A DNA stretch of 20,000 nucleotides from an uncultured virus (IMG/VR IMGVR_UViG_3300032093_000107) (Duplodnaviria > Heunggongvirae > Uroviricota > Caudoviricetes): IMG/VR virus record IMGVR_UViG_3300032093_000107; one strand, given 5' to 3'. Numbering within the stretch: position 1 is the stretch's first letter; the number at the start of each line of letters is the position of its first letter. The notes below the pieces were generated by a model, which saw nothing but the letters and a program-made list of their open reading frames with translations, was not told where the DNA came from and did no database searches. The translations under genes were made by a program, and so were the position numbers. Positions 1,243 through 16,932 of the stretch are shown here, in pieces.

Positions 1243-1265
1243 GTTGTCCTCATTTTTTAATTGAA

Positions 1266-1526
1266 TTATTCGACACCGTGCCACCTGATGCACAAAGTGG
1301 ATGGGTCAATTACTTTTACTGGCTTATCCCATTGATCTAAAAACTTTTCTAGATTCCAATCGTAGTTCAAAGCGTATTCCTCAATTGTGGCTTTTTCCTT
1401 TTCCCAATACGCCTCCCTGTCCCATTGCTCTTTAGCGAAGGAAGCTAATTCTATAGAATCAAATACCCCGACAGTGATTTTATCCTCGCACTCTCCTGCC
1501 GTCACGATGTAGATAGTTTTAATCAT
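1266..1526 (-). CDS. Phage hypothetical protein (86 aa; DUF7336-like 'IYIV..GE......GVF.S.E.A' pattern)
   Basis: ORF track 1266..1562. Start moved to ATG 1526 (MIKTIYIV) behind an AGGGGG RBS, overlapping the upstream stop. Confidence 0.65.
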   Translation of the reverse strand: MIKTIYIVTAGECEDKITVGVFDSIELASFAKEQWDREAYWEKEKATIEEYALNYDWNLEKFLDQWDKPVKVIDPSTLCIRWHGVE

Positions 1527-1823: not shown

Positions 1824-4136
1824 CTAAGCTAAATCTAGTAGGCTTAACTGCTCACATTTACCTTGATGCTCTGCCAGTCTCAAGTTTTGCTTGGCACATT
1901 CAAAGTACGAGCCTTTTAATTCAATTCCTATGAATTTACGTTTCTGTTCAAGGCTAACATAGCCTTCAGTGCCAATTCCTAGAAAGGGTGAAAAGACAAT
2001 TTCCCCAGGCATTGACCAAAGCTGTAAGCCACGGCGGACTACATCGAGTTGTAATGGACAAATATGCTTAAGATCGTCGTCGTCTTTGCCTTCACGGAAG
2101 TTAAGAGTATCGTTTTGACGGATATCCATCCAAATAGGACTGGCGTATCTTTGCCAGATTTCAATCGACTTGCTATTAGGATCTGAAGAAAATGGGAGTG
2201 TATTTTCGCCATAATATTCCGTCAATATTCCCTCCACTGGAACTTTATTTACCCCTGGCTTACGGAAAGTGATTAGATAGTCAGCAAGCCCCGCTCCTGA
2301 CATGGCGGAATCTTTTTTAAGTTGCTTGTGAAGAAGTGAGATCGCTTTTGTCCGTTGCATCGCAACTACGGGATCTTTCCAGATTGTCACTCTTGAATGA
2401 AAATAGAAGCCAGCATGTTCCATCAATCGGACTATCTGACAAGAGAAGTCTTTTAATCCTATATACCCATCCCATGCCTTAGTAGCTAACAGGTCTTGGC
2501 AATGGATGCTAACTAATCGCCCAGGTTTAATAATCCTGAATAGCTGTTCAGAAAGATAATTGTAATGTTCCCCGAATTGTTCCTCAGATGTCACATTGCC
2601 CATATCTCTGTCACTATCCGTATAAACGAATAGATTGCTAAATGGCGGACTAAATACCGAGTAGTCAATCCAATTATCAGGAATAGATTTGATGACCTCG
2701 CAACTGTCACCACGGAAGATGTTAAAATCATCCCCATGGCATTCATCTATTACTCTGATTTCCTCTTTGGGCTGGAATAGTTTAGGAGTCATGATTACCT
2801 CTGGATTATATCCGTTATTGCGTTTATCCTCTTGAACTGCTTTCATGTGTGCAGTAATTTCACGTTGCATTGTTTCAAAATCTTTTTGTTTCCTTTTTAG
2901 GTTTGCTAATACCCGTCCCTCAGTGTCAACGCAAATCATATAAGAATTGACTCGGCTTTTTTGCCCATACCTCCAACACCGCCTGATTGATTGATAGACC
3001 ATCTCAAACGAGTTGTTTAGCCCAACAAATACGATATTATGGCAGTTTTGGAAGTTAAGACCAAATCCAAAAATACTTGGCTTAGACACCAATACCCTGA
3101 TGTGACCCTCCGCAAAGTCAATGGCACTATTGGACTTGTGATCCTCCTTATCGCTTCCTCTTACCTCTACGGCTCCATTAAGAGCTTTTTTTAGTGCTTC
3201 TGATTCGGCATTCAAATCACAAAAGACTAACCATTGCTCATCTGAATTATTGACAAGTTTGGCTACTTCTGCGACTCTCAATGCTAATGTGGACTTTTTG
3301 GCTTCACGTTGTTCGGTCACTCCCGTGGCTTCCATCGTGAATATCTCCCCATCCCTCGTAATGCCTGAGATTACCTTTATTTCATGCTGATAGAGTGGAG
3401 GCAATTCAAATCCATCGCCATTAAAACCTAAATCAGCAGGAGATTGGAGCATACAAGACCACTGAGTTAGCCACTCCCAGAAAGCAACCTTGCCATATTT
3501 TTTGAGAGTCCATAATTTCTCAGCCATAGCCGCCTTGCCGTCTCTGACAAAGAAGGTGGCAAGCATTTCAGCCTGTAGCATCACTCCTAGGAACTCCGCA
3601 TGGTTGCCTAGTTCCGTGTAGTCGTTAGGGGACGGGGTGGCCGAGCAGCAAAGCCGATACTCAGTACGGGAAAACTGCTCGATTAATAGCTGTTTTGTAG
3701 TCCCTGAGAAACTTTTCAAAATTGAACTTTCATCTAGGACGATACCCGAAAAGATGGAAGTATCAAAGTTCCCCAATCTTTCATAGTTTGTGACGTTAAT
3801 TCCATCCGTCACATCCTCGCCCGATAGGCAGTAGGTCACAGGGATACCCCACTTGACTGATTCGGTGTTAGCAGTCTGACGGGCAACCCCTAAAGGAGCC
3901 AAGATTAATATGGGCTTTCCTGTATGCTTCACAACGCAATCAGCCCATACCAACTGCATCAGGGATTTTCCTAATCCAGTGTTAGCGAATACAGCAAACC
4001 GCCCCTTAGCTAAAGCCATCCTTACTATATGCTCTTGATAGTCGAATAGGCTAGGATGTAGCCATTCGCTAGGAACATCAAAGCCCACTGGCTCTAAAGT
4101 CTTTGTCTTGCTGTCTATAAAATCTAGATAATCCAT
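1824..4136 (-). CDS. SF2/SNF2-like helicase fused to an N4-C/N6-A DNA methyltransferase
   Basis: N-terminal Walker A ANTGLGKS, LDESS, SATPSPND, GFGLNFQ and QSIRRCWRYGQ. C-terminal FSPPF (motif IV) precedes VFSPFLGIGTEG (motif I) and FIGIELK, i.e. beta-class order. Confidence 0.9.
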   Translation of the reverse strand: MDYLDFIDSKTKTLEPVGFDVPSEWLHPSLFDYQEHIVRMALAKGRFAVFANTGLGKSLMQLVWADCVVKHTGKPILILAPLGVARQTANTESVKWGIPVTYCLSGEDVTDGINVTNYERLGNFDTSIFSGIVLDESSILKSFSGTTKQLLIEQFSRTEYRLCCSATPSPNDYTELGNHAEFLGVMLQAEMLATFFVRDGKAAMAEKLWTLKKYGKVAFWEWLTQWSCMLQSPADLGFNGDGFELPPLYQHEIKVISGITRDGEIFTMEATGVTEQREAKKSTLALRVAEVAKLVNNSDEQWLVFCDLNAESEALKKALNGAVEVRGSDKEDHKSNSAIDFAEGHIRVLVSKPSIFGFGLNFQNCHNIVFVGLNNSFEMVYQSIRRCWRYGQKSRVNSYMICVDTEGRVLANLKRKQKDFETMQREITAHMKAVQEDKRNNGYNPEVIMTPKLFQPKEEIRVIDECHGDDFNIFRGDSCEVIKSIPDNWIDYSVFSPPFSNLFVYTDSDRDMGNVTSEEQFGEHYNYLSEQLFRIIKPGRLVSIHCQDLLATKAWDGYIGLKDFSCQIVRLMEHAGFYFHSRVTIWKDPVVAMQRTKAISLLHKQLKKDSAMSGAGLADYLITFRKPGVNKVPVEGILTEYYGENTLPFSSDPNSKSIEIWQRYASPIWMDIRQNDTLNFREGKDDDDLKHICPLQLDVVRRGLQLWSMPGEIVFSPFLGIGTEGYVSLEQKRKFIGIELKGSYFECAKQNLRLAEHQGKCEQLSLLDLA

Positions 4137-4160
4137 AAGCCCTCAAATGTTTGTAAATTA

Positions 4161-4203
4161 ATCATCCCACCTATCCAATAAACTGTCATCTGTATAAATA
4201 CGG
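4161..4203 (-). promoter_or_regulatory. Repeated phage promoter, copy A (drives the helicase-MTase operon)
   Basis: Minus strand reads CCGTATTTATACAG-ATGACA-17 bp-(TGG)GATGAT, followed by ...GAGGGCTTATG at 4136. Confidence 0.75.
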
Positions 4204-4235
4204 ATATCCTATTCGTTCATTAAAGCTTAGGATTT

Positions 4236-4278
4236 AAGTATATTTACTGATGACAATTAGGCTAGGCTATGGGATATT
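4236..4278 (+). promoter_or_regulatory. Repeated phage promoter, copy B
   Basis: AAGTATATTTACTG-ATGACA(4250-4255)-17 bp-(TGG)GATATT(4273-4278), with RBS GAGGAC downstream. Confidence 0.8.
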
Positions 4279-4306
4279 AAAGATACAAACTTTTGAGGAC
4301 AGCTTA

Positions 4307-4627
4307 ATGACCGCTTCTAATTCTCGCTCTAATCTTTCTTTCCTAAAAAAAGCCATTGGGCTAAAATCCAAGGCTACAAAGTCTCAGACTTCTAAATGGG
4401 TTCTGGATGCTGTCTATCGGCTCCAGAACCAATACTCCGAAATTGCTTACGGCATTGCCCATGCTGACCAGACAGCGCGGATTGATGGTCAGATGTCCCT
4501 AGGACTTAGAAATATGCCAGCATCCACAATGGCAACTTTAATTGTAGCCATTCACTCCGCAGGGATTGAGTTATCGGGGGATGTCAGCGCGTGGCTGTGG
4601 CAGAACAGAGATTTGATAGTCTCTTGA
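4307..4627 (+). CDS. Hypothetical cassette protein (106 aa)
   Basis: The ORF track start at 4250 lies inside the promoter. ATG 4307 (MTASNS) follows GAGGAC, and the gene has its own terminator. Confidence 0.75.
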   Translation: MTASNSRSNLSFLKKAIGLKSKATKSQTSKWVLDAVYRLQNQYSEIAYGIAHADQTARIDGQMSLGLRNMPASTMATLIVAIHSAGIELSGDVSAWLWQNRDLIVS

Positions 4628-4649
4628 CTTATCCCTGTTTCAATCTTTG

Positions 4650-4669
4650 GAGCCGAAAGGCTCTTTTTT
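4650..4669 (+). terminator. Intrinsic terminator
   Basis: GAGCC-GAAA-GGCTC followed by TTTTTT. Confidence 0.85.
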
Positions 4670-4693
4670 ATTGCCCATATCTTTTTTTAATGC

Positions 4694-5221
4694 CTATATC
4701 CTTTTTAGGGCATCCTCTATCAATCTCTGATATTCAAGCACGATAGAGTCTTGAGTTAAAGTCCCGTCTGCATTTAGCCCGATATAGTTCCGTTTCTGGC
4801 TAAATCTATTAGTTCCCTGATTGGCTATTTTCCTCCCAATCAAGAAAGCGATCGCGCGAATCCTCTTAGGGTCTGTCTCTCCTAATTTCACCTCTACCCA
4901 CTCCCTTAGCGGTTCTAGTGGGGGAAACTTACCCTCACCCCTACCGACCACTCGATAAAGTGCCGCAGTAGTGCGATTTACTATCGACGCTCCTATCTCA
5001 AATCCGATAGTAGACTTCCTAGGGGCGATAATGTCCCACCCTTCGGCTAATGATGGCTTACCCTTCCTCTTGGAAGCACCCACGTAGGACCCGCTCTCTA
5101 ATTCGCTTGCCAAGTCTAGGAGTAGGTCAATAAAAATGTCATAAAGCTCTCGCTTGAGGATATCGGACTTAATCAACCCTGGGTTTGTGGTTACTTTTAA
5201 TCGGAGATCGGCTTTAGGCAT
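4694..5221 (-). CDS. Putative neck/tail-completion (HK97 gp10-like) virion morphogenesis protein
   Basis: The motif GRGEGKFPPLEPLREWVEVK...AFLIGRKIANQGT is typical of phage neck proteins. Start moved to ATG 5221 (MPKADL) because the upstream extension overlaps promoter copy C. Confidence 0.6.
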   Translation of the reverse strand: MPKADLRLKVTTNPGLIKSDILKRELYDIFIDLLLDLASELESGSYVGASKRKGKPSLAEGWDIIAPRKSTIGFEIGASIVNRTTAALYRVVGRGEGKFPPLEPLREWVEVKLGETDPKRIRAIAFLIGRKIANQGTNRFSQKRNYIGLNADGTLTQDSIVLEYQRLIEDALKRI

Positions 5222-5266
5222 GGTCTTAAAGGGATTTATCCTAATTCTAGCCAATCTAAAAAAGTT

Positions 5267-5309
5267 CAGTATATTTACTGATGACAAATAAATTGGACTA
5301 TGGGATATT
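5267..5309 (+). promoter_or_regulatory. Repeated phage promoter, copy C
   Basis: CAGTATATTTACTG-ATGACA(5281-5286)-17 bp-(TGG)GATATT(5304-5309), leader AAACAAACACAGAGGACAAAC. Confidence 0.85.
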
Positions 5310-5342
5310 AAGAGTATAGAAACAAACACAGAGGACAAACAC

Positions 5343-5546
5343 ATGGAAGCTTATATTTTATTAACAGGACCGCTAGAAGGAACAATTGTTGACCCATCTG
5401 GGCTATGGCTTTCCTACCATGAGGTAGAAGATGAGTACACCGAAGAGGAAATTAACTCTTGGCAGGATCGCCCCGCTACTCAGCACGAACTGAGTCTGTG
5501 TCCACCGCAATACCTAGAAGCGATCGGGCTTAAGTGGCGACACTAA
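5343..5546 (+). CDS. Small acidic hypothetical protein (67 aa), anti-defence candidate
   Basis: ORF with own promoter and strong RBS; 13 D/E versus 3 K/R. Confidence 0.75.
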   Translation: MEAYILLTGPLEGTIVDPSGLWLSYHEVEDEYTEEEINSWQDRPATQHELSLCPPQYLEAIGLKWRH

Positions 5547-5564
5547 ACCAAAACATCAAGCAAA

Positions 5565-5590
5565 GCCCCGCAAGGGGCAATTAAACCACA
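5565..5590 (+). repeat. GNRA hairpin element, copy 1
   Basis: GCCCC-GCAA-GGGGC-AATTAAACCACA, identical to 6054-6079. Confidence 0.85.
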
Positions 5591-5653
5591 ATCACATGCT
5601 AGGTTAGGAGCCATAAAACTTTTTTTATTGCCTATCCCCACCCTAAAAAAGTT

Positions 5654-5696
5654 CCGTATATTTACTGATGACAAATTAATTGAACTATGGGATATT
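5654..5696 (+). promoter_or_regulatory. Repeated phage promoter, copy D
   Basis: CCGTATATTTACTG-ATGACA(5668-5673)-17 bp-(TGG)GATATT(5691-5696), leader AAACAAACACAGAGGACAAAACG. Confidence 0.85.
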
Positions 5697-5727
5697 AAGG
5701 ATATAAACAAACACAGAGGACAAAACG

Positions 5728-6036
5728 ATGACCAGTAAATTAAAAGGATTAGCTACAGAATCAGAAAACTTTACTAAGTTTGCAAGCAATGGGCTATACG
5801 AAGGAACAATAAACAAGGTCTACATTAAAAAAGGTAACGATTTACTATTTGGATTTTATGCCCATTGTGGCTATTTTATCAGAATTGAAGATGGAAAAGG
5901 CAACTTAGTCAGAGAGCATTGGCTTAATGACGAACCTGATATGACGGACCCCACACTCCCTATCTATCCCCCCGTTGCCGACATAAGCACATTCGCACTA
6001 TTTGGGTACGAACTCAGAGAACTCACCTTTAACTAA
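5728..6036 (+). CDS. Hypothetical cassette protein (102 aa)
   Basis: ORF directly after promoter D and the RBS GAGGAC. Confidence 0.75.
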   Translation: MTSKLKGLATESENFTKFASNGLYEGTINKVYIKKGNDLLFGFYAHCGYFIRIEDGKGNLVREHWLNDEPDMTDPTLPIYPPVADISTFALFGYELRELTFN

Positions 6037-6053
6037 TCCCCGACTAGCAGCAA

Positions 6054-6079
6054 GCCCCGCAAGGGGCAATTAAACCACA
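6054..6079 (+). repeat. GNRA hairpin element, copy 2
   Basis: GCCCCGCAAGGGGCAATTAAACCACA, identical to 5565-5590. Confidence 0.85.
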
Positions 6080-6107
6080 TCAACCATAAACATAGAGGAC
6101 AAACATC

Positions 6108-6674
6108 ATGGCTACTTACGAATTAACTCAGCAGCAATTCATCGCATTTTTAGAATACACTTGGAACACTCATTTAGATTGGTACGATAATCTATTTCAT
6201 TCTATCCTCGCTTATGAGGAAAGCCGTACTTTCTCCGAGGGATGGCAATATTGTAAATCCAGCTTAACTATTAGCCTCCAAGCTCCCGACAAATATACCA
6301 AAAGATGGGAGTACGTCACAACTAGCGGGACGGAACTCAAGGTTATAAATTGCGATTATGACAACATCGGAGACGTTTATGAGGTAACGATCCCCGACCA
6401 TCGAAATCAGCCTGGGCGCACTGCCTATACTAATATGCAAGCCGTCCTAGCAGGCCACGCCTTTTGGTGGTGGTCGGAACAGCAAGACGAAAGCAACCCC
6501 GATGCCCTAGCTGCGGCAGCTTTCTTCCAGGGGGTGACAGTAGAGGAACTCATAGCAACTCGCAAAAAAGAAAAGGAAGAGTCGGCAATCCGTCAAGAAG
6601 AAAGCCGACAACAGTTGAATAGCAATGACGATTCCGACTGGGACGATTTTGGAGATGTCATAGAAGAGGAATAA
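6108..6674 (+). CDS. Acidic hypothetical protein (188 aa) with acidic C-terminal tail
   Basis: RBS AGAGGACAAACATC-ATG; tail NDDSDWDDFGDVIEEE; second gene of cassette D. Confidence 0.8.
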   Translation: MATYELTQQQFIAFLEYTWNTHLDWYDNLFHSILAYEESRTFSEGWQYCKSSLTISLQAPDKYTKRWEYVTTSGTELKVINCDYDNIGDVYEVTIPDHRNQPGRTAYTNMQAVLAGHAFWWWSEQQDESNPDALAAAAFFQGVTVEELIATRKKEKEESAIRQEESRQQLNSNDDSDWDDFGDVIEEE

Positions 6675-6692
6675 TCCTTATTCCCCACCATT

Positions 6693-6714
6693 AGAGCCAT
6701 AAGGCTCTTTTTTT
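6693..6714 (+). terminator. Intrinsic terminator
   Basis: AGAGCC-ATAA-GGCTCT followed by a T-tract; related to the 4650 terminator. Confidence 0.85.
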
Positions 6715-6718
6715 GTGG

Positions 6719-6859
6719 CTACCCTTCGGCGTGGGGGGCAGCCATTAGATAAATAGCCACGGACAAAAGGGAAGATACTGGAGCACCTGCCATGGCAAAG
6801 ATTGAACAGGACAACATCAGAAGACTAAAACAGGTAAGGGGGTAAGATTTGAGCTTCAT
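6719..6859 (-). CDS. Putative small membrane peptide (46 aa)
   Basis: Hand-translated MKLKSYPLTCFSLLMLSCSIFAMAGAPVSSLLSVAIYLMAAPHAEG. It fills the gap between two cassettes but has no clear RBS. Confidence 0.4.
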   Translation of the reverse strand: MKLKSYPLTCFSLLMLSCSIFAMAGAPVSSLLSVAIYLMAAPHAEG

Positions 6860-6928
6860 GGGGTGGGTAAATAGTATTTCTAAAATATCAGCCCCTATTT
6901 TGGGTTTTCTGATAATCGGTTAAAAGTC

Positions 6929-6971
6929 CCGTATATTTACTGACACAAAGATTACAAAAGGATGCTATATT
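6929..6971 (+). promoter_or_regulatory. Repeated phage promoter, copy E (drives the CRISPR-like RNA)
   Basis: CCGTATATTTACTG (6929-6942), diverged -35, then TGC-TATATT (6966-6971) at the same palindrome-to -10 spacing as the other copies. No GAGGAC RBS follows. Confidence 0.75.
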
Positions 6972-7006
6972 AAAGACATCAAAAATTTTTAACCAAGTTT
7001 TATTTT

Positions 7007-7105
7007 GTTCCGATCCACTCTCCACTAATCCCTGTAAGGGATTGAAACTATGTTATGTAGTCTTGAGAGTGCCCCATTTTTTAATCCCTGTAAGGGAACT
7101 TAAAG
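7007..7105 (+). CRISPR. CRISPR mini-array / crRNA-like element: two type I-D-like repeats and one short spacer
   Basis: Repeat 1 is GTTCCGATCCACTCTCCACTAATCCCTGTAAGGGATTGAAAC (7007-7048). Spacer is TATGTTATGTAGTCTTGAGA (7049-7068). Degenerate repeat 2 is GTGCCCCATTTTTTAATCCCTGTAAGGGAACTTAAAG (7069-7105). The 16-nt core TAATCCCTGTAAGGGA is identical at 7026 and 7082. Confidence 0.8.
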
Positions 7106-7132
7106 CCGCCAATACCCATAAGGCGGTTTTTT
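7102..7132 (+). terminator. Intrinsic terminator of the CRISPR-like RNA
   Basis: AAAGCCGCC-(11 nt loop)-GGCGGTTTTTT. Confidence 0.75.
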
Positions 7133-7160
7133 GGTATCTAGAGCCAATCCCTAAAAAGTT

Positions 7161-7203
7161 CCGTATATTTACGGATGACAATTAAGGGTAGGCATGAGAT
7201 ATT
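7161..7203 (+). promoter_or_regulatory. Repeated phage promoter, copy F
   Basis: CCGTATATTTACGG-ATGACA(7175-7180)-17 bp-(TGA)GATATT(7198-7203), leader AAACAAACCACAGAGGAAAC. Confidence 0.85.
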
Positions 7204-7239
7204 AAGGATATAGAAACAAACCACAGAGGAAACAACGCC

Positions 7240-7506
7240 ATGACTCCTTTAAAATTTGCTAAAAAACTAACTGAATTATCCGATTACAATATCTTGCCAT
7301 CGCAGGTTAAGCTTTGGAATTGTCATTACGCTGGAGATGATCACCTGACAGAGAAACTAGCCATTGAAATTGCCAATCAGTGGCGTGAAGAAGATCCCGA
7401 TGAGGTTGGAGATCCATACGGATTGCTCGAAATCCAAAGCCTACATCTAGAAAGCATTTTTGAGGAGTCGATAGTCAGAAGAGAGCCAGTTCCTTGGAGT
7501 CGATAG
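7240..7506 (+). CDS. Small acidic hypothetical protein (88 aa), anti-defence candidate
   Basis: Own promoter, RBS and terminator; 17 D/E versus 9 K/R. Confidence 0.75.
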   Translation: MTPLKFAKKLTELSDYNILPSQVKLWNCHYAGDDHLTEKLAIEIANQWREEDPDEVGDPYGLLEIQSLHLESIFEESIVRREPVPWSR

Positions 7507-7556
7507 CACCCCGCCCTGAGCATGGCACTAAAAGGCTTTTGATTTTTTTGCTCATA

Positions 7557-7587
7557 AGGTGGGATAGAAGTATCCCCCTCTTTTTTT
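7557..7587 (+). terminator. Intrinsic terminator
   Basis: GGGATA-GAAG-TATCCC stem with a downstream T7 tract, between convergent genes. Confidence 0.65.
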
Positions 7588-7589
7588 GC

Positions 7590-7784
7590 CTATCCATCAA
7601 GGAAGAAAGTTTTAGGTTTAGTGTCATGAGTCACGATTAAACCTTTTTCCGTTAAATCCTTGAGGTAGGACGCGATTATATTGGGGTAGCAGTCAATCTC
7701 AGCATCTATCTGGTCAATCGTCACTGGCTCGCATTGGGTAGCCAGAAAAGATAAAATCTTAACACCTATCGGGAGTCGGTTCAT
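7590..7784 (-). CDS. Small winged-helix DNA-binding protein (64 aa)
   Basis: KILSFL...PVTIDQIDAEI...IIASYLKDLTEKGLIV...PKTFF wHTH pattern. Start ATG 7784 overlaps the upstream TGA (ATGA coupling). Confidence 0.7.
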   Translation of the reverse strand: MNRLPIGVKILSFLATQCEPVTIDQIDAEIDCYPNIIASYLKDLTEKGLIVTHDTKPKTFFLDG

Positions 7785-7939
7785 TGTGAGAGCTTCCACA
7801 GGAGAAAGGATATATAAAAGGTAAGAAGAACCAATATCAGGAGAGCTTGAATCAGCCCTAACCAAAAATCAGCCCGATCCTGCCTTTCCTGTTCTTTGAT
7901 TTTCCGTCTGGTTTTTAGATTTAGTTTAAAATTGTCCAT
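7781..7939 (-). CDS. Small single-pass membrane protein (52 aa)
   Basis: Hand-translated MDNFKLNLKTRRKIKEQERQDRADFWLGLIQALLILVLLTFYISFLLWKLSQ, overlapping both neighbours. Confidence 0.6.
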   Translation of the reverse strand: MDNFKLNLKTRRKIKEQERQDRADFWLGLIQALLILVLLTFYISFLLWKLSQ

Positions 7940-8139
7940 TGGTGATTGTTGTGTTTTGCTGTTGCTAGTTTTAGTTGAGATTGGAGTCCTTTAATTTCTT
8001 TGCCCTCTCCCCTATTGGTTCTTTTTTGGGCTTTATCTATTTGGTCTTTTAGGTAATTTAGATAGCGCTCGGTGGGAATATAGCCACAAATTCGACAGCG
8101 ATCATGGTCGAGCCCTGGGCAATCGTTAATGTGTTTCAC
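7921..8139 (-). CDS. Hypothetical protein with Cys/His cluster (CPGLDHDRCRICG)
   Basis: ORF track 7921..8184. Likely GTG start at 8139 behind GGGGGA. Confidence 0.55.
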   Translation of the reverse strand: MKHINDCPGLDHDRCRICGYIPTERYLNYLKDQIDKAQKRTNRGEGKEIKGLQSQLKLATAKHNNHQWTILN

Positions 8140-8863
8140 GTTCCCCCCAGTACGCAGCATCACGACACTCGGTAATCCAATCAATCGTGTCTTGGGGGAT
8201 ATTTTTAAGCTGGCTATAGCCCGATATAGATTTAATCTTATCCAAAAATCTAAGCAAAGCAGAGGGTGATATCGAGTAATGATGGGTGTACCGACGAGCT
8301 TTAAGATCCTTTTTATAAATTGCCCTCAGGATTACGACATGATCCACCTCTAGGATTTTTGCCACGGCACAAGCAGACCAATCGCCTAACTCCGCCCTTG
8401 CCGATCCTACGTGATGGTCTTTCCTTAAATCAGACAGCTTTTTCTCCGTAGCAAAAATTGATCGCTTAAGTTTTTTGGCAATTCTGGGGACGCTCCACAC
8501 CCCACACTTTTCTATTAAAAATTCAATATCATTGTCAGACCATGGAACTCGCGGAAATTTATTTTGCTTTAGATTTCCCGCTTTGACTTGTCCTCTGATA
8601 GAATCTCGTGATATCGAAAAATGATCCATTACAGCATTTACCCCATCTGAATCAAGGATTTTTTGCGCGATCGCCAAATTTTCTTTAGACCAATTAAACC
8701 GCGATTGCAATCTCGGAACGTGGGGGAATCGCTTGTATCGAAGCTGATTTATAGCAGATTCCGATTTGCCAATCATTTTCCCAATTTTCTGGCAGGAAAG
8801 CCCATTCAATAGCCATGATTCAATCTGATTTAATTGTTCCTGACTGTAAATTTTTGTTGTCAT
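8126..8863 (-). CDS. Multi-HTH DNA-binding protein
   Basis: Repeated HTH/homeodomain-like units (GLSCQKIGKMIGKSESAI; WSDNDIEFL...SVPRIAKKLKRS) and a C-terminal excisionase-like HTH (SACAVAKILEVDHVVILRAIYKKDLKA). Confidence 0.7.
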   Translation of the reverse strand: MTTKIYSQEQLNQIESWLLNGLSCQKIGKMIGKSESAINQLRYKRFPHVPRLQSRFNWSKENLAIAQKILDSDGVNAVMDHFSISRDSIRGQVKAGNLKQNKFPRVPWSDNDIEFLIEKCGVWSVPRIAKKLKRSIFATEKKLSDLRKDHHVGSARAELGDWSACAVAKILEVDHVVILRAIYKKDLKARRYTHHYSISPSALLRFLDKIKSISGYSQLKNIPQDTIDWITECRDAAYWGERETH

Positions 8864-9501
8864 GTTGCCATCTCCTTTTTTAGTTGATATTCAAATCGTT
8901 TAATTGCCTGTATCCTAGTGTCGTAATTTTCCGACATTGCCTGATGATCAACAGATTTAGGTATTGCAGGAATTTCAACAGCATAAGAGGTATGCTTGCG
9001 CGGTGGTCTGTTTTCTTCGTATCTAATACCAGAATCCCTCGAACATTCCACACAGCATTTATTGCATTTTCTTCGTAATGAAGCCTCTAGCCCATTGTAT
9101 CTGTGTTCCCTTTTGCAAAGTTGCCCGACAAAAAAACGATCATCAATTTCGTCTGTCAAAACAATTTTGTCTAGCTTTCGTCTGCTTTTATCTGTTAGCT
9201 TTTTGCACTCTACACAGCTTCTGGTCTGAGTGTTTTTTAGAGAGAATCCCGTTCCGTTATAGTCGTGATTCCTTCCACACAACCCGCCTAAAAAATGTTT
9301 TTCCCCCTTAAGTTTAGCCTCTTTACGATTGGCTATTATTTTGTCAACATATTTCTGATCTTTGCCATCCCGTCTTTTCTCGAATTTAGTTCGATTGTGA
9401 CAAAGAACACAACCGAAATTAGAAATATATCGCAAGTTTTGCCCATTCTCGTCTTGATGCCCTTTTGGACATGGTTTGCCTAGGTAGGTTTTAGCGGTCA
9501 T
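8860..9501 (-). CDS. Protein with three tandem putative Zn-binding G-x2-C-x3-H...C-x2-C repeats
   Basis: YLGKPCPKGH..GCVLC, FLGGLCGRNH..SCVEC, FVGQLCKREH..CCVEC. Start at ATG 9501 is coupled to an upstream TGA. Confidence 0.7.
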   Translation of the reverse strand: MTAKTYLGKPCPKGHQDENGQNLRYISNFGCVLCHNRTKFEKRRDGKDQKYVDKIIANRKEAKLKGEKHFLGGLCGRNHDYNGTGFSLKNTQTRSCVECKKLTDKSRRKLDKIVLTDEIDDRFFVGQLCKREHRYNGLEASLRRKCNKCCVECSRDSGIRYEENRPPRKHTSYAVEIPAIPKSVDHQAMSENYDTRIQAIKRFEYQLKKEMAT

Positions 9502-9656
9502 GGTTCTATTTCCCCCGACGCTATTTTCCAATCAGTTTCCCACGCCAGAATGATTTCGTCGTCCGATAAATTTAGCACCTCTTCGGGATTAGTTGCCTGC
9601 CATTTTAGCCAGGCTTTTCTGTTTTGCTCTAGCGTTGTAATTTCATTTGAATCCAT
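9498..9656 (-). CDS. Small acidic hypothetical protein (52 aa)
   Basis: Hand-translated MDSNEITTLEQNRKAWLKWQATNPEEVLNLSDDEIILAWETDWKIASGEIEP. Fills the gap between nblA and the Zn-repeat gene with overlaps. Confidence 0.6.
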   Translation of the reverse strand: MDSNEITTLEQNRKAWLKWQATNPEEVLNLSDDEIILAWETDWKIASGEIEP

Positions 9657-9840
9657 TGTCAAGTCCCCACTTTTCTTTAATTATCTGCTTGTAAAAAACA
9701 TCAAGATAAATCATCTTGATATACTCTTGGACGATTGTATCCTTAAGAATATCGGTAGGCAAAGTAGATGATTTTACCCTTAAAATTTCGAGCTTGAATT
9801 TCTGCTCTAAAGTTAGTTCCCCAAATTTAGAATCTGTCAT
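9643..9840 (-). CDS. nblA: Phycobilisome degradation protein NblA
   Basis: ELTLEQKF...YIKM....FYKQIIKEKWGL matches the NblA signature (ELSLEQQF...YQELLKHQWGL) in sequence and length. Confidence 0.85.
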   Translation of the reverse strand: MTDSKFGELTLEQKFKLEILRVKSSTLPTDILKDTIVQEYIKMIYLDVFYKQIIKEKWGLDNGFK

Positions 9841-10142
9841 TTTCCTAACACCTCATAATCGTGACATTCTAAACAAGAGCCAGTAGGATTGATGGCGCAT
9901 TTAAGTTGAGTCATTTTACTCCAATTGCGACAGGAGCGCATAACTTTTAACTCTTGAATCTCAAGTTTTGCTCTAAGTTCAAAGTTTTCATGATTAAGCT
10001 CATTGGCTTGCCGATGTGATAAAATCACGTCACGGTTACAATCGGCTGATATTCTGTCTAATTCTGTCTCATAATTCCGTTTTTGAGCAGATAGAATTAT
10101 CAAAAACAGAATTATTAAGCTCAATAAAATTAACACGATCAT
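9837..10142 (-). CDS. DUF6464-like protein with N-terminal membrane anchor
   Basis: C-terminal CRNW....LKCAINPTGSCLECHDYE cyanobacterial motif and a hydrophobic N-terminus. Confidence 0.7.
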   Translation of the reverse strand: MIVLILLSLIILFLIILSAQKRNYETELDRISADCNRDVILSHRQANELNHENFELRAKLEIQELKVMRSCRNWSKMTQLKCAINPTGSCLECHDYEVLGK

Positions 10143-10366
10143 AATGCAATCTCTCCCTTTAGTTTTAGTTGCTTAATAATTTTCTCGGCAGTGTGATAAG
10201 GCATATCTTTCCCTTTGCCATAGGAAATTGTCGCAGTCCTTTTTCGCCCATTTGGTTCAGTGAGAGTGATTATTCTATGGGCAGTTTGTCCCTGCCTATA
10301 AGTAAAAATCCATCCCTTATCACTAGCATACTGGGCGATAATTTTCAGTAGTTCGTCTGGCTTCAT
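10139..10366 (-). CDS. HicA-like mRNA interferase (75 aa)
   Basis: MKPDELLK...KGW..TYRQGQTAH...PNG...TI..GKGKDMPYHTAEKIIKQLKL follows the HicA pattern. Start ATG 10366 is coupled to an upstream TGA. Confidence 0.6.
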   Translation of the reverse strand: MKPDELLKIIAQYASDKGWIFTYRQGQTAHRIITLTEPNGRKRTATISYGKGKDMPYHTAEKIIKQLKLKGEIAL

Positions 10367-10755
10367 ACTGCCTCCTGAGCATTTAGGATCGCAATAAGCC
10401 GTCTTAGCGCGGCGTTCCATGCCTCCGATCTTTGGAGGAAATTGTAAGCTCCTTTGTGAATAAATTTCCCATCTTGCCACAGGAAATAGGCATAATTTCC
10501 TTTAGAACAATCAAGGTAGATTCGATAGATTACCCCGTCTCTTTCCTCTTGATAGTTAGGAGTACGGGGTACTCCTGCTATTAATGCAGACTCTTTATAA
10601 GGGGCTGTTGGATTGATGTCTTCCCCTAGTAAAAAATAGATATACTGATTACTTTCTTTGTGCCATTGTGATTTATAAATCGTGGCACGTTTCCATAGTT
10701 TATTTATTTCTACGGGCGAACCTATAGGAAATTTAGAAATGTTAGGTAATTGCAT
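10363..10755 (-). CDS. Hypothetical protein (130 aa; N-terminal SH3/YorP-like 'KFPIGSPVEI')
   Basis: ORF track; RBS AGAGGAC; part of the operon. Confidence 0.65.
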   Translation of the reverse strand: MQLPNISKFPIGSPVEINKLWKRATIYKSQWHKESNQYIYFLLGEDINPTAPYKESALIAGVPRTPNYQEERDGVIYRIYLDCSKGNYAYFLWQDGKFIHKGAYNFLQRSEAWNAALRRLIAILNAQEAV

Positions 10756-10778
10756 TTTGTCAGTCCTCTATGTTTGTT

Positions 10779-11462
10779 TTACTGGTAGGCTTGAGGGTTG
10801 AAGTTGTCCTTTAGAGCAGAAAATCCATCCACTTGAGTAGGGATGTTTTCTACAAGTTCCGATTGCTCTAATCGTGCTTTGTTGAGCTTGGCCAGGAGTT
10901 CTTTGGGCATCCTTTTCTGTATAGTTTTATGCCACCAATCCATATCAATTTTAGGCATTTCGTCAACAAATGGGGACTTGTAAACTTCCCTGACTTCTGG
11001 CAGTTTTGGATTAGGCAATTGACGGGTTCCGTTGTTAAGGGACTCCTCATACATCAGCCAGAGCTTAACGAAGTTGTTGGCAGAGTAACTTAGCTTTTCT
11101 TGGGGTAGAGCCGATATGGTACGAATCCCTCCAATCGCTTCTAAGGCAAGTTCAGCCATGGGGGAGATAATTAAAGCATTGTCGGGAAACCGAATGGCAT
11201 TTTGAATTGACTTCCACTCTTCCCACGCGATTAAGTCACTCTTAGGAGTAGGCTTAAAATTCTCAATTACCTCTAGTGGGGATAGCGGCCGTCGGGCGAA
11301 CTTGGCTATTGCGGCTTTTAGGCAGGGGTAAAGCTCATCCTTTTCTAGTTGAGTGAATACCTCATACCACTGCTCAAAAGCCATCTCGTTAGTCGTGTAG
11401 TCGTAGTTGTAATATTCTCCAAACATAGCAATTGCTACAGTGAAATCTTCTTTAGAAATCAT
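10779..11462 (-). CDS. Putative helicase loader/inhibitor (G39P/DUF6475-like)
   Basis: Directly downstream of the initiator gene. N-terminal MISKEDF...W...L...A...F..P and ALEAIGG patterns. Confidence 0.6.
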   Translation of the reverse strand: MISKEDFTVAIAMFGEYYNYDYTTNEMAFEQWYEVFTQLEKDELYPCLKAAIAKFARRPLSPLEVIENFKPTPKSDLIAWEEWKSIQNAIRFPDNALIISPMAELALEAIGGIRTISALPQEKLSYSANNFVKLWLMYEESLNNGTRQLPNPKLPEVREVYKSPFVDEMPKIDMDWWHKTIQKRMPKELLAKLNKARLEQSELVENIPTQVDGFSALKDNFNPQAYQ

Positions 11463-11471
11463 GTTAATCCT

Positions 11472-12701
11472 CTAGGTGTGCTGATAATGCGGTTTTTGAC
11501 CCATTGACGCTACTCGATCTAAGGCATCGGAAATTTTGGTAGCCATAGCGTCGTAGGTTGCCCCCACAAAGTCTTTAAGCTCTCCTGATTCCCACATTTT
11601 GAGAATTGCGCGATCGCTAGGATTGGTAGCAGATGAGTTGATTCGCTTTAATGCAGCCAACGCTATAGCCTCAATATTCCCAGGTAGTAGCTTAGGATTG
11701 GTAGCCTTGAGGTAGTGACGATACTGCTCGTAAAATTCGTCTTCCTGCGCTATATCGGGAAATATCGTAGTTGAATTTTTGGCTATCTCCCTTTTGTACG
11801 ATATCGGACTTTTGGCAGGAAAGAAAGGATCTACCTTCTTTGTAGCTAGTTGAGAATTACTCGCAATAGTGGGAATGTCATCCACAATCGGATTTATTTT
11901 TTTGGCTAGAGAGACGGGTTGAGTAACAGCCTGTTTTATTTCACGATTTGGCTCTAGCGTGTCAATCTTGACCTGTTCGGATAAGATTGTGTGTGTTTGC
12001 TCATTTCCCTCCCATTTACCCAAATAGTGGACTTTCATTTGAGCCAGTACGGTTGGATTCTTGATCACAAGAGCCGTTCTGTCGTAAACGGCTTTAAAGT
12101 GCAGATATTCAGGATCTGAAAGATAAGCCGTATCTGAACTCCCCTCTTGGGGAGAAATTTCTTCCGAAAAAATTTCAATCGCACTTTCTAATTTTTTTTC
12201 TCTCGCGCGCTCCGGATCTAGAGAGAGATAAGTAAAATTATCTTCTTCTTTTATTTCTCTTTCTTTGAGAGGTTCTGAAACCCTTTCATATTGCGGGTTT
12301 TCAGGCGCGATTGTCTCATATTCGAGACAGTCAGTCTCAGATGTGGGGCACTCATTCCCAGATGTGGGGCACTCCAAATCAGAAGTTTTGTCCTGCTTTT
12401 TGGGCTTGACTTTAGCCGATTTTGGCTTAAGTACTTGGCAGGAGAATACGGACTCACCCGTCGGCTCTAATTTGCCGTGGCCGTTTTTCTCAAGCTTGGA
12501 TATCCCCCGGTAGAAGCTTGAGCGAGGCAGTTCCCACTCTTGGCAAAACCCCGATATCGAAGGGATTTTAAGATCGATGTTATCGGGAACCAAAATCCCT
12601 TTGATCGCTACTAGGTACCCTGCGGCGGTCAAGTAGCCATTTTGGTACATAGCTAGGGCTTTGTCCTTGGTTATTGCGAAAAATTTTTCATTAATCCTCA
12701 T
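11472..12701 (-). CDS. Phage replication initiator (lambda O-like architecture)
   Basis: Start moved to ATG 12701 (RBS AAGGAG). N-terminal wHTH (GFCQEWELPRSSFYRGISKLEKNG) followed by internal 21-bp iteron-like repeats. Confidence 0.7.
   Translation of the reverse strand: MRINEKFFAITKDKALAMYQNGYLTAAGYLVAIKGILVPDNIDLKIPSISGFCQEWELPRSSFYRGISKLEKNGHGKLEPTGESVFSCQVLKPKSAKVKPKKQDKTSDLECPTSGNECPTSETDCLEYETIAPENPQYERVSEPLKEREIKEEDNFTYLSLDPERAREKKLESAIEIFSEEISPQEGSSDTAYLSDPEYLHFKAVYDRTALVIKNPTVLAQMKVHYLGKWEGNEQTHTILSEQVKIDTLEPNREIKQAVTQPVSLAKKINPIVDDIPTIASNSQLATKKVDPFFPAKSPISYKREIAKNSTTIFPDIAQEDEFYEQYRHYLKATNPKLLPGNIEAIALAALKRINSSATNPSDRAILKMWESGELKDFVGATYDAMATKISDALDRVASMGQKPHYQHT
12313..12375. repeat. 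Three 21-bp iteron-like repeats; probable replication origin
   Basis: GTCTCATATTCGAGACAGTCA / GTCTCAGATGTGGGGCACTCA / TTCCCAGATGTGGGGCACTCC. CAGATGTGGGGCACTC is exact at 12338 and 12359. Confidence 0.7.
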
Positions 12702-12772
12702 GGGATAACTCCTTTTGTTCTGATTTATTGACTTTAGCAAAGACGGCAGGGTTTGTCTGCCATCCCTTAGCT

Positions 12773-13045
12773 TTATATTTTGTCCCATCCTATGACTGCA
12801 TTCAATATCCTTACGGTGCGACGTGACTTTATATTGAACCAATTACAGTTAATGGGGAACCGATAGAGCAAAGCCCCTTTATTAAAAAAATGAACGGATA
12901 TCCGCCTGTGGCTAGCAGTGTTATATATCCTCCAGTAATCACCCCGTTCGACGGTCCTGTAATCAATATCGTTGATATTCTCAAAAAGCACTTCATATAT
13001 CCCGACACGGAATCTTAAATGCTTTTCCTTGCTACAATCTCGCAT
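12773..13045 (-). CDS. Hypothetical protein (90 aa)
   Basis: ORF track, co-oriented within the operon. Confidence 0.5.
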   Translation of the reverse strand: MRDCSKEKHLRFRVGIYEVLFENINDIDYRTVERGDYWRIYNTASHRRISVHFFNKGALLYRFPINCNWFNIKSRRTVRILNAVIGWDKI

Positions 13046-13232
13046 TTTGCATCCTCTGCCACTTAAGGCTGTTTTTTAGTTCAACTTCGACTTTAGCTAG
13101 TTCTGCTTCAGCCTGTTCCCTTGTGAGATAAGAGTAATTGTGCCGATATAAAAAAAGGTTGGCACAAACAATCTCAAACGAGTACAATTTAGAGGCAGTG
13201 TGAATGATTCGCTTTTTTAGTTTTGTCCTCAT
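13032..13232 (-). CDS. Hypothetical protein (66 aa)
   Basis: ORF track; first ORF after the 13.3 kb promoter; start uncertain. Confidence 0.45.
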   Translation of the reverse strand: MRTKLKKRIIHTASKLYSFEIVCANLFLYRHNYSYLTREQAEAELAKVEVELKNSLKWQRMQNARL

Positions 13233-13280
13233 GTTTGACTTGTGCCCGCCACGCGCGGGTTTTTCTTTGCTTTGATTTTT

Positions 13281-13309
13281 ATAATTCCATACTAAAAAAG
13301 CCCTGTCAA
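13281..13309 (-). promoter_or_regulatory. Sigma70-type promoter of the replication operon
   Basis: Minus strand TTGACA (13309-13304)-17 bp-(TGG)AATTAT (13286-13281). Confidence 0.65.
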
Positions 13310-13317
13310 GGGTTTTT
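13294..13317 (-). terminator. Probable terminator of the structural operon, overlapping the -35 box
   Basis: Minus strand AAAAACCCT-TGAC-AGGGCTTTTTT. Confidence 0.55.
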
Positions 13318-13325
13318 CAAAAGTT

Positions 13326-16928: not shown

Positions 16929-16932
16929 GGTT

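Follow-up and report, generated by a model that had tools for sequence, protein, structure and literature searches.

A non-coding mimic of a cyanobacterial CRISPR unit in a probable cyanobacterial virus, a candidate viral crRNA-like RNA

Why should a phage that has no cas genes of its own carry an intergenic stretch resembling a single CRISPR unit? The window (the whole stretch of 20,000 nucleotides of an uncultured virus analysed here) is phage DNA, with portal, tail-fibre and helicase/methylase genes, and the virus with the CRISPR-mimic RNA is probably a cyanobacterial virus. It is only distant kin of the cyanosiphoviruses: the nearest isolates are Synechococcus siphoviruses, at 25–29% identity, and portal homologues in 7 of 401 Cyanobacteriales genomes are merely 30–35% identical. 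Apart from one sub-threshold TNB match, a scan of 27 ORFs in the window detected no Cas family, in agreement with an earlier note on this DNA, which had seen no cas1, cas2 or cas6 gene. The TNB match is Cas12f-like and lies in a TnpB at positions 1–1293. The element itself (6963–7132, plus strand) comprises about 155 nt without a conserved ORF, with an extended -10 promoter in front and a strong terminator behind. It is best read, from its sequence features, as a viral crRNA-like RNA of the Racr or Cracr kind, because host type I-D units share its hairpin and because a second viral locus (L011) has much of its own guide in common with one such host unit. The anatomy of the element, its conservation and the host I-D counterparts of the same design are directly observed. 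The features are as follows.

6922..6943, plus strand: upstream half of a shared promoter box, an imperfect and operator-like palindrome, CCGTATATTTACTG, of the direct-repeat families D1/D4
6928..7605, plus strand: accessory cassette (CRISPR-mimic RNA, next promoter and an 88-aa ORF at 7240–7506), absent in a related phage variant
6963..6971, plus strand: extended -10 element TGcTATATT, read directly, differing from the -10 of the box family
7016..7022, plus strand: 5' strand of candidate clamp helix P1 (CACTCTC), pairing with 7065–7071 according to RNAduplex
7027..7043, plus strand: hairpin 1 (AATCCCT-GTA-AGGGATT), a CRISPR-repeat hairpin and presumed Cas6 site, with the same form in cyanobacterial arrays of about 72-nt period
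7041..7048, plus strand: 8-nt tag ATTGAAAC, the would-be crRNA 5' handle, read directly
7049..7082, plus strand: pseudo-spacer of 34 nt, comprising a conserved 18-nt part (7049–7066), the 3' strand of P1 (7065–7071) and a U-run (7077–7082)
7083..7097, plus strand: hairpin 2, a degenerate second repeat reduced to its core, without the 5' repeat part and without the ATTGAAAC tag
7102..7132, plus strand: intrinsic terminator with a 9-bp GC-rich stem, an 11-nt loop and a U-run (T-run in the DNA), from RNA folds

The description of the element as a stand-alone, non-coding mimic of a CRISPR unit, bounded by promoter and terminator, is borne out by the sequence, by the folds and by the lack of a conserved ORF. 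The only ATG-started frame (at 7050, 17 aa) is reduced to ATG-TAA in the ortholog described below, and a small-ORF reading was rejected. An Rfam search of the element gave no matches at E<=1. The promoter had been thought to be common to the neighbouring cassettes, and this holds for its upstream palindromic half, whereas the -10 is different and extended. The 64-nt promoter box family has five copies (at 4229, 5260, 5647, 6922 and 7154), and the D1/D4 repeat families have an additional degenerate copy at 13319. The copy at 6922 has just 70% identity to the reference, with the upstream half (6922–6943) in common; this 22-nt stretch is 100% identical to positions 10719–10740 of a related phage contig, G002. 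The -10 aligns with TGgTATATT in the ortholog, which has no upstream box at this place. Transcription is predicted from the sequence to start near 6978. The terminator was missed by a simple terminator scan because of its 11-nt loop; it is kept in the ortholog with one loop change.

The hairpin core AATCCCTGTAAGGGA is found at 7027–7041 and again at 7083–7097, a spacing of exactly 56 nt, as had been noted earlier. No further copies were found in the window when up to 2 mismatches were allowed; the chance expectation is 0.04, and at least two copies occurred in 0 of 200 shuffles. The first copy runs on as ...GGGATTGAAAC to 7048, hairpin and tag together occupying 7027–7048, and the second runs on as GGGAACTTAAAG. 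The element is not a canonical array, as it has two copies of which the second is truncated, and a unit of 56 nt versus about 72 nt in host arrays. Neither is it a solitary repeat, since a partial repeat, the second hairpin copy of 15 nt, follows at a distance of 56 nt, within 100 bp.

Type I-D and type III systems dominate in cyanobacteria. Arrays of the form ATCCCT-NNN-AGGGATTGAAAC, with a period of about 72 nt, were found in four genomes, one of them a Calothrix MAG with 86 matches. In one genome (G015) arrays at L092 1561–2714 and 17184–18201 flank type I-D cas genes, and the hairpin plus ATTGAAAC form thus occurs in arrays adjoining cas3', cas10d, csc2 and csc1. The first repeat had been taken for a 37-nt type I-D repeat; its hairpin and tag have that form, and the form is found beside an I-D locus, while the 5' part is unconserved. 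The match to host repeats (e.g. CCACTAATCCCT...AGGGATTGAAAC of G065) is confined to the 3' 22–25 nt of the 37-nt repeat. Comparison with host loci likewise recovered the form (in G015, in G147 and in the Calothrix MAG) and, in the genomes scanned, no array of the exact 22-mer, which was present in one of the species-representative genomes scanned, as a two-repeat orphan unit. The repeat that is mimicked could also be of type III. According to a preprint, the I-D and III-D Cas6 enzymes of Anabaena cross-cleave such repeats, and the mature crRNAs begin with an 8-nt 5' tag (10.1101/2020.04.14.041012).

Two crRNA-like units, of solitary or mini form and with the same hairpin, were found in cyanobacterial I-D loci, each with a nearby GTN-flanked partial target. 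The first (G147, L094:7850–7943) is located in a confirmed I-D operon, with Cas3' on one side and Cas10d on the other (NCBIfam matches TIGR03158, TIGR03174, TIGR03157 and TIGR03159), and its guide has a 9-nt seed match behind GTC, 110 nt upstream. The guide of the second (G015, L092:7018, minus strand) matches GTT followed by ACGAGGTACTCAATA in 18 of 24 positions at L092:7230, a site just upstream of that genome's I-D operon, with a seed mismatch at position 6. In having such partial targets these units resemble the host CreR/CreA mini-CRISPRs (Liu et al., bioRxiv 10.1101/2023.03.10.532045), whose guides, as described in that preprint, have a partial PAM-flanked match to a promoter beside the cas genes; the same preprint mentions creA-like elements for I-D, also seen by manual search. 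The window element shares with CreR/CreA the single degenerate repeat-spacer-repeat unit. In contrast to these host mini-CRISPRs, which are chromosomal and lie within cas operons, it belongs to a virus, its second repeat is truncated, and no target for it was found.

An orthologous element is present in one related, syntenic phage contig (about 80% identical), G002, the core of which has 80.1% identity to the window over 6.1 kb; it is retained there despite exchanged neighbouring genes. In a hand count on the alignments, the hairpins agree in 27 of 27 stem bases and differ in 4 of 6 loop bases (about 4e-4 in a hand-calculated Fisher test, for phages at 80% identity). The earlier note had made its reading depend beforehand on both hairpins being conserved in related phages, and both are conserved in this contig; in hairpin 2 the stems are identical, and none of the 3 loop bases is the same. 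Of the first 18 guide bases 17 are identical, the sole change being at guide position 6, a conservation that by itself is insignificant against the background of about 80% (binomial P about 0.1, with a single ortholog). From guide position 19 on the pseudo-spacer diverges, with a 3-nt insertion. The tag of the ortholog, ATTGAAGC, is one base off (GAAAC versus GAAGC), and the 5' part of the first repeat (about 7010–7022) is replaced, so that the conserved part is hairpin plus tag. As far as sequence comparison goes, this pattern would be expected for Cas6-recognised hairpins with a short functional guide, and would be unexpected for a pure decoy.

Identical copies of the element are present in IMG/VR contigs, outside any CRISPR-Cas locus, and in a 65.9-kb metagenome contig (L068); a search for relatives through two flanking proteins recovered the identical contig alone. 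A BLAST search of window positions 4100–20000 against 251 genomes gave repeat matches and short matches without flanking repeats, and no spacer against the phage. In one related variant the accessory cassette is absent: a DNA contig from run X18, at depth 43.6, passes from 6927 directly to 7606 apart from 12 different letters in the gap. Dispensability in related variants is usual for counter-defence genes. Metatranscriptome contigs (2 of the 22 runs are RNA) cover 6642–6792 and 7229–7504 and not 6979–7133, a pattern to be read in the light of the usual loss of small RNAs from such libraries.

Folding suggests that part of the guide may be base-paired, in helix P1, in hairpin P2 or in a long-range fold. 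The upstream flank pairs with the pseudo-spacer better than expected (RNAduplex, p=0.007 versus 300 shuffles), and helix P1 is also present when the transcript, cut at the U-run, is folded to minimum energy; in the ortholog the support for the helix is weak (p=0.31). In a cross test the 5' strand of P1 from the window with the 3' strand from G002 gave -11.6 versus -10.9 kcal/mol for its own partner, and the reverse cross -6.4 versus -12.5; owing to indels, MAFFT misaligns the P1 partner bases by 2 columns. Given this ambiguous cross test, the claim is limited to the statement that the helix can form in both phages. The consensus fold of the two elements is a single long imperfect hairpin of about 19 bp, in which the tag pairs with the U-run with one compensatory change from A-U to G-C. 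This long hairpin is almost perfect in the ortholog, because hairpin 2 has its loop inverted there. Flank-to-spacer helices were also found in other single-unit viral elements (L011, p=0.023; L014, p=0.020; L001/L003, 25 bp, z about -8), and were absent from the five units of L018, a real viral array of 5 repeats (p 0.24–0.84).

The viral locus L011, unrelated to the window element, has the same 56-nt unit with a degenerate second hairpin, and its pseudo-spacer has 26 of 34 bases in common with that of the G147 host unit, a number reached in 0 of 100,000 shuffles. The 56-nt design is thus one in which viruses carry copies of regulatory crRNA-like RNAs of host I-D systems. A short-unit pattern search of IMG/VR recovered this phage and the contig of L011, and nothing else. 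Phage arrays of the same repeat family in IMG/VR have 5 repeats (L018) or 2–3 repeats (L017, L021). A metagenome scan for the core of hairpin, tag and terminator yielded nine stretches: one was the element, and the others, five real arrays in which the terminator core occurs by coincidence and three chance matches, were rejected.

The earlier idea that the start of the spacer resembles an extended -10 box gained no support. A target for the pseudo-spacer was sought at several levels. As had been said earlier from inspection by eye, it has no other match in the window, either at up to 3 mismatches or by seed scan; the 20-kb ortholog contig contains no target, INPHARED (50,697 phage records) no match, and a local scan of four I-D loci gave none. 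Exact 21-mer and 18-mer words in IMG/VR (2.9 million viral contigs) matched the element itself, the ortholog and six hairpin-free stretches, which are from giant-virus or other contigs, with the 18-mers at chance level. With up to 2 mismatches, the guide 21-mer matched in 3 of 401 Cyanobacteriales genomes versus about 11 matches for the reversed control, and a pattern of PAM plus segments in 0 of 401 genomes versus 6 control matches. BLAST of the element found it in 0 of 389 genomes of one family, with 2 candidates per genome scored. In the 401 and 389 genomes and the four I-D loci sampled, the guide neither shares at least 9 PAM-proximal bases with a CreR/CreA spacer nor matches a cas or toxin promoter, the two relations that mark a Cracr guide, a comparison of low power; these blank searches are weak evidence.

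We tentatively favour, at rather less than an even chance, a phage-encoded crRNA-like RNA, i.e. a one-unit degenerate mini-CRISPR that would guide a hijacked effector to repress a defence promoter. During infection, host Cas6 would cut the transcript of about 155 nt at hairpin 1 and possibly at hairpin 2, giving a product with an authentic 8-nt AUUGAAAC tag. This product would compete with host crRNAs for loading into the type I-D effector of the host (Cas10d-Csc1-Csc2) or, possibly, into one of type III. The conserved 18-nt tag-proximal guide would most likely direct the complex to a partly matching GTN-flanked site in a cas or other defence promoter, which would be repressed and not cleaved, as with Cracr regulators; inevitably, Cas6 and Cas7 would at the same time be titrated, which is the Racr effect. 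The Cracr RNAs hijack CreR/CreA circuits, and viral crRNA-like regulators with guides of about 21 nt have been described for types V-A, I-B, I-C, I-E and I-F (Liu et al., bioRxiv 10.1101/2024.10.29.618823). Like these, the window element is phage-borne, lies outside a CRISPR-Cas locus with its own promoter and terminator, and consists of a pseudo-repeat, a short pseudo-spacer and a degenerate second pseudo-repeat, with a conserved tag-proximal guide of about 18–21 nt; the parallel viral element L011 is homologous to a host crRNA-like unit inside a cas operon. Unlike them, its second pseudo-repeat lacks the entire 5' part (hence the 56-nt unit), and its pseudo-spacer has no host CreR/CreA-like counterpart or target in the sequences searched. 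The set described in the preprint, moreover, is from Pseudomonadota, Bacillota and Actinomycetota (10.1101/2024.10.29.618823), and the terms I-D, type III, cyanobacteri- and cyanophage are absent from its main text, supplementary tables aside. No viral crRNA-like regulator or RNA anti-CRISPR for type I-D, for type III or for cyanophages was described in the literature searched. A more elaborate account, which we consider unlikely as a whole, would make the element the first type I-D viral crRNA-like regulator and a two-state molecule. A clamp helix (7016–7022/7065–7071) and an anti-tag U-run (7077–7082, against the AUUGAAAC tag) would then flank the conserved 18-nt guide; host Cas6 and Csc2 would build a short I-D complex that binds without cleaving; a host cas or defence promoter would be silenced; and at least one further cyanophage lineage would have come to the 56-nt design on its own, by taking over a regulator from a host cas operon.

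The strongest competitor, which we judge somewhat unlikely, is a Racr-type decoy, whose hairpin and tag would be bound and cut by Cas6 to yield aberrant, non-functional Cas5/Cas7 sub-complexes, while the downstream sequence would serve as structure only (clamp helix, tag panhandle and second hairpin), setting the stability or the size of the dead-end complex. Repeat mimicry directly behind a promoter of its own, in a phage without cas genes nearby, is the setting of the solitary repeat units (Camara-Wilpert et al., Nature 2023, PMC10651486), an account that describes tests of Racr function for types I-C, I-E, I-F and V-A alone. The position of the window element among small early-type genes fits as well, and binding of Cas6 and Cas7 would be expected. 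A decoy would agree with the lack of a target in the sequences searched and with a strongly structured pseudo-spacer, given the compensatory change in the tag/U-run pairing and the probability found for P1; base-paired guide parts suit a structured decoy at least as well as a guide, and flank-to-spacer helices occur in the single-unit viral elements and not in the real array. However, a decoy requires neither a second hairpin nor a conserved guide, and the ortholog keeps both. The SRUfinder rules, as given in PMC10651486, bar a partial repeat within 100 bp, and with its second partial repeat 56 nt away and its conserved spacer-like segment the element would count as a mini-array in the pipeline of that paper. 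Finally, the closest structural analogue, L011, copies a host unit of regulatory type, guide included.

Two further explanations appear improbable, both to about the same degree in our estimate. The element might be a relic or have a non-CRISPR role, as a decaying, now functionless fragment of a captured host array, as a structured RNA or DNA element (a long hairpin, an RNase III site or a recombination site) that merely chances to descend from a repeat, or as a site for integration into host arrays. The long consensus hairpin, almost perfect in the ortholog, the dispensable cassette and the gap in metatranscriptome coverage would suit such an origin, but it is at odds with a conserved extended -10 and strong terminator of its own, with the retention of every stem base next to changed loops, and with persistence of the element through exchange of neighbouring genes. 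A working one-spacer mini-CRISPR, borrowing host Cas proteins to cleave a rival phage or plasmid (superinfection exclusion), a use that has been proposed for mini-arrays on viruses and for the array of cyanophage N-1, would explain the full first hairpin with its tag, the 34-nt spacer of normal array length and the terminal degenerate repeat, and arrays of the same repeat family do occur in IMG/VR phages (L018, L017 and L021). The freshwater cyanophage N-1 reportedly carries a real multi-spacer array of full repeats. The window element resembles that array in that it comes without cas genes, belongs to a cyanobacterial family of CRISPR repeats, sits on a probable cyanophage and would depend on host Cas6; it differs in being a single unit whose second repeat is degenerate and truncated, with a guide that related phages have retained. 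Virus-borne mini-CRISPR arrays are also said to act in inter-viral conflicts, with spacers that match related viruses. The element shares with them the one or two spacers and the host-type repeats on a virus without cas genes; unlike theirs, its pseudo-spacer has no viral match in INPHARED or among the IMG/VR words save itself, the ortholog and the chance-level 18-mers, and thus no protospacer in either collection. For N-1, transcription of the array and cleavage of its repeat by host Cas6, namely by Anabaena Cas6 enzymes, have been reported in a preprint (10.1101/2020.04.14.041012). Against a working spacer in the window element, two close phages differ in its 3' third, where one has an insertion, and agree in the 5' part, a divergence that would break a full-length match, and the 3' part is able to pair with the RNA's own 5' flank.

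Should both the regulator reading and the decoy reading fail, the element would be an ordinary degenerate mini-array. Mimicry of CRISPR units by RNA has only recently been recognised as a form of phage counter-defence and has been tested just in Proteobacteria-type systems (I-C, I-E, I-F and V-A). The window element, its ortholog and the pair formed by the G147 unit and L011 (26/34) provide candidates with which to ask whether freshwater cyanophages silence or jam type I-D immunity with RNA, a question relevant to the ecology of bloom phages and to compact guide designs for I-D tools.

The element described in the earlier note as a CRISPR-mimic RNA could be recognized in the sequence between the ORFs for 188 and 88 residues. 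Its parts, and the other features referred to here, are as follows.

Features of the window (strand where assigned)
1-1293 (-): IS605-type TnpB gene, running past the window edge
1824-4136 (-): helicase fused to N6/N4 DNA methylase
6108-6674: 188-aa ORF, 5' neighbour of the element
7016-7022 paired with 7065-7071: predicted clamp helix P1 of fold A
7027-7043: hairpin 1, AATCCCT-GTA-AGGGATT, ending in the tag ATTGAAAC, which reaches 7048
7049-7082: pseudo-spacer, 34 nt
7083-7097: hairpin 2, which repeats the 15-nt hairpin core and lacks the tag
7102-7132: terminator, 9-bp GC-rich stem and U-run
7240-7506: 88-aa ORF, 3' neighbour of the element
10139-10480 (-): HicA-like toxin-family ORF (phrog_353, E 7e-10)
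13319-13351: degenerate copy of the promoter box

The 15-mer of the hairpin core has two exact copies in the 20 kb (0.04 expected), a number reached in none of 200 shuffles, and the predicted fold of a 161-nt stretch of the element is more stable than those of 199 among 200 shuffled sequences (z = -3.9). No Rfam match to the element was obtained, nor does it hold a conserved reading frame, as its sole ATG-started frame reads ATG-TAA in the ortholog from the related phage contig G002. Metatranscriptome contigs span the flanks and leave the RNA itself uncovered, which is uninformative where the RNA is small. On its sequence, the element can be classed as a crRNA-like RNA encoded by a virus.

The window encodes tailed-phage genes, including a portal (phrog_145, E 9.5e-66), tail-fibre repeats, the helicase-methylase fusion and the TnpB. 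The closest isolates by portal are Synechococcus siphoviruses (25–29% identity), and prophage portals with 30–35% identity to that of the window occur in seven of 401 Cyanobacteriales genomes. DNA runs containing the stretch are labelled as freshwater (or 'fungus') metagenomes. The phage is probably a cyanophage. Its tail-fibre gene (19049-19997) has internal DNA repeats, i.e. two of 201 nt (72% identical) and a 138-nt tandem (94% identical).

A 64-nt promoter box precedes small genes in five copies (4229-4292, 5260-5323, 5647-5710, 6922-6985 and 7154-7217), and is found in 14 IMG/VR viral contigs. It is built of a 16-bp palindrome, TCMGTATATTTACKGA, followed directly by ATGACA-17-GATATT and then by a conserved AAACACAGAGGA leader/RBS. 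The promoter had been claimed to be common to the element and the neighbouring cassettes; this holds for the palindromic half at 6922, the only part which that copy has in common with the others (70% overall identity), but the -10 of the element is a different, extended one (TGcTATATT, 6963-6971). Transcription would start near 6978. The G002 ortholog retains the extended -10 (TGgTATATT) and the leader, and the box in G002 drives an extra ORF inserted 5' of the RNA. The boxes form a regulon-like set with a palindrome resembling the operator of a phage regulator; genes for HTH proteins lie at 7590-7865 and 8126-8863.

The hairpin pair was found in one of the 13 non-identical box-bearing viral contigs, namely G002 (20.8 kb), a syntenic phage with core genes 80.1% identical over 6.1 kb and a mosaic early region. 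Its element reads ...CCCCCTCCCCT-AATCCCTGCAAGGGATTGAAGC-TATGTAATGTAGTCTTGAAAGGGGGATCCCATTCTTT-AATCCCTTACAGGGAAT...terminator. In counts made on two alignments with this one ortholog, all 27 stem bases of both hairpins are identical, in contrast to the loops, where four of six bases have changed (P about 4e-4, Fisher test by hand). One base of the tag is different. Pseudo-spacer bases 1–18 are identical except at position 6, though 17/18 is by itself not significant against the 80% background (P about 0.1); from position 19 the two phages diverge, including a 3-nt insertion. G002 has other sequence in place of what was taken for the 5' part of 'repeat 1', and the full first repeat that had been proposed is therefore not conserved. 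Searches with the flanking proteins (n=2) and the exact pseudo-spacer gave only an identical 12-kb IMG/VR contig, and a metagenome scan for the element gave one identical 65.9-kb contig; no further copy came from these searches.

Two mutually exclusive folds, A and B, of near-equal stability are predicted in both phages (-37.4 versus -39.4 kcal/mol in the window, -35.3 versus -39.4 in G002). Fold A has both local hairpins, a small hairpin inside the conserved guide (7047-7061) and the clamp helix P1; for the nascent RNA ending at the U-run it has the lowest predicted energy in both phages. Helix P1 has p=0.007 in the window and p=0.31 in G002; cross-pairing of its strands between the phages is ambiguous. 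The two strands differ in sequence between the phages, but indels preclude a column-wise count. In fold B, the choice of RNAalifold, AGGGAUUGAAA (7037-7047) is base-paired to UUUUAAUCCCU (7079-7089), as are the outer half-hairpins to one another, giving 28 pairs with one compensatory change (A7047 to G in the tag, matched by U7079 to C). Flank-to-spacer helices are also present in other single-unit viral elements (L011, p=0.023; L014, with a 64-nt unit, p=0.020; L001 and L003, in which a perfect 25-bp inverted repeat encloses the repeat and about 20 nt), whereas L018, a real viral array, has no such helix in any of its five units. Variants of the L004 type carry an extra insert.

The ATCCCT-NNN-AGGGATTGAAAC form of the repeat is common in arrays with a period of about 72 nt, with 86 matches in a Calothrix MAG and 120, 146 and 41 in three other genomes, one of which has the repeat GTTTCAAAAACCACTAATCCCTATCAGGGATTGAAAC and shares CCACTAATCCCT with the window. 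According to the available portion of 10.1101/2020.04.14.041012, the Anabaena I-D and III-D Cas6 enzymes each cut such repeats, the mature crRNAs begin with the 8-nt tag, and the array of cyanophage N-1 is a substrate of Anabaena Cas6. Since arrays of this form lie on both sides of the type I-D genes in the Calothrix MAG, but both enzymes cut, the earlier label of I-D-like remains a reasonable one on sequence grounds, and the repeat may instead belong to a type III system. An exact 22-mer of the window occurs in a single species-representative genome, this same MAG, in a two-repeat orphan unit. The unit is present twice (G015:C10:39983 and 55376, 15.4 kb apart; also L025), is the only genomic location of the 22-mer, and has a terminator behind it.

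A scan of four I-D loci revealed units of one or two repeats, inside or beside the cas operon, that have the hairpin of the window. The guide of the solo unit of the Calothrix MAG (L092:7018, minus strand) matches GTT|ACGAGGTACTCAATA... at 18 of 24 positions at L092:7230 (+), a short way 5' of the first I-D gene, with its sole seed mismatch at position 6. In the cyanobacterial genome G147, a two-repeat unit (L094:7850-7943) lies between Cas3' and Cas10d (families confirmed by NCBIfam); 110 nt upstream of it, at L094 7759, its seed matches 9 nt that follow a GTC. Both units look like candidate autoregulators of I-D loci of the CreR/CreA type. Such units are not new, since a preprint, in the part available, states that creA-like elements were seen for I-D too by manual search (10.1101/2023.03.10.532045).

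A viral counterpart is L011 (IMGVR_UViG_2914081374_000001, near locus position 1500, minus strand), which resembles the window element in its 56-nt unit, its U-run and the degeneracy of its second hairpin. Its pseudo-spacer is identical to that of the G147 operon unit in 26 of 34 bases (reached in 0 of 100,000 shuffles), and the second repeat of L011 lacks its first 17 nt at the 5' side, which were lost precisely as in the window element. Judged in this way, L011 is a stronger candidate than the window element for a Cracr (viral crRNA-like regulatory RNA). The short-unit pattern is rare, being found in IMG/VR only in the window phage and the contig of L011. A solitary-repeat family, AATCCCTACTAGGGATTGAAAC, occurs in nine IMG/VR contigs (L001-L005, L007, L009, L012 and L022), and L008, L010 and L013 are viral mini-arrays of two repeats, each with a pair of 'spacers' of almost the same sequence.

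We tentatively favour a processed RNA with a guide that matters, i.e. a Cracr-like regulator, because both Cas6-type hairpins and the 18 nt next to the tag have been conserved amid the drift of all the rest, because the design is common to the window and to a viral copy (L011) of a host cas-operon regulator, and because published viral regulators carry short guides, as far as the available text of 10.1101/2024.10.29.618823 goes. Nearly as likely, if doubtful in itself, is a decoy of the RNA anti-CRISPR (Racr) type, for which the heavy internal pairing speaks, as does the lack of a target for the pseudo-spacer. With up to three mismatches the pseudo-spacer matched only itself in the window; scans for its seed in the window, in G002 and in the four I-D loci gave no match, nor did INPHARED phages. 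In IMG/VR its exact 21-mer was found only in itself, and an 18-mer in itself, the ortholog and six hairpin-free stretches of giant-virus and other contigs. Among the 401 Cyanobacteriales genomes, the 21-mer with up to two mismatches had three matches versus about 11 for the reversed control, and a pattern of PAM plus segments (up to one mismatch) none versus six for the control; BLAST on 389 genomes of one family (E<=1e-7), with two candidates scored per genome, gave none. These negative searches are weak, since they cover a sample of genomes that may not include the host. A guide against rival phages seems improbable, and a mere relic hardly less so; both are less likely than the Cracr-like regulator or the Racr-type decoy.

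A CRISPR array of cyanophage N-1 was reportedly published in 2016. Viral crRNA-like RNAs are a known kind, going by the available parts of the Racr paper (2023, PMC10651486) and the Cracr preprint (2024-26, 10.1101/2024.10.29.618823), whose main texts, in those parts, name neither type I-D nor cyanobacteria except in a reference. A full-text literature search for I-D or cyanobacterial viral crRNA-like RNAs gave the Racr paper alone, and supplementary candidate lists may include some.

In one DNA run, a related phage variant of higher depth lacks 6928-7605, with 12 other letters in place of this 678-nt stretch (RNA, promoter and 88-aa acidic ORF); the RNA together with the 88-aa gene is therefore a dispensable cassette. 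Neither the 88-aa ORF nor the small acidic ORF behind the RNA of G002 had a family match, and both are worthwhile candidates as anti-CRISPR proteins.
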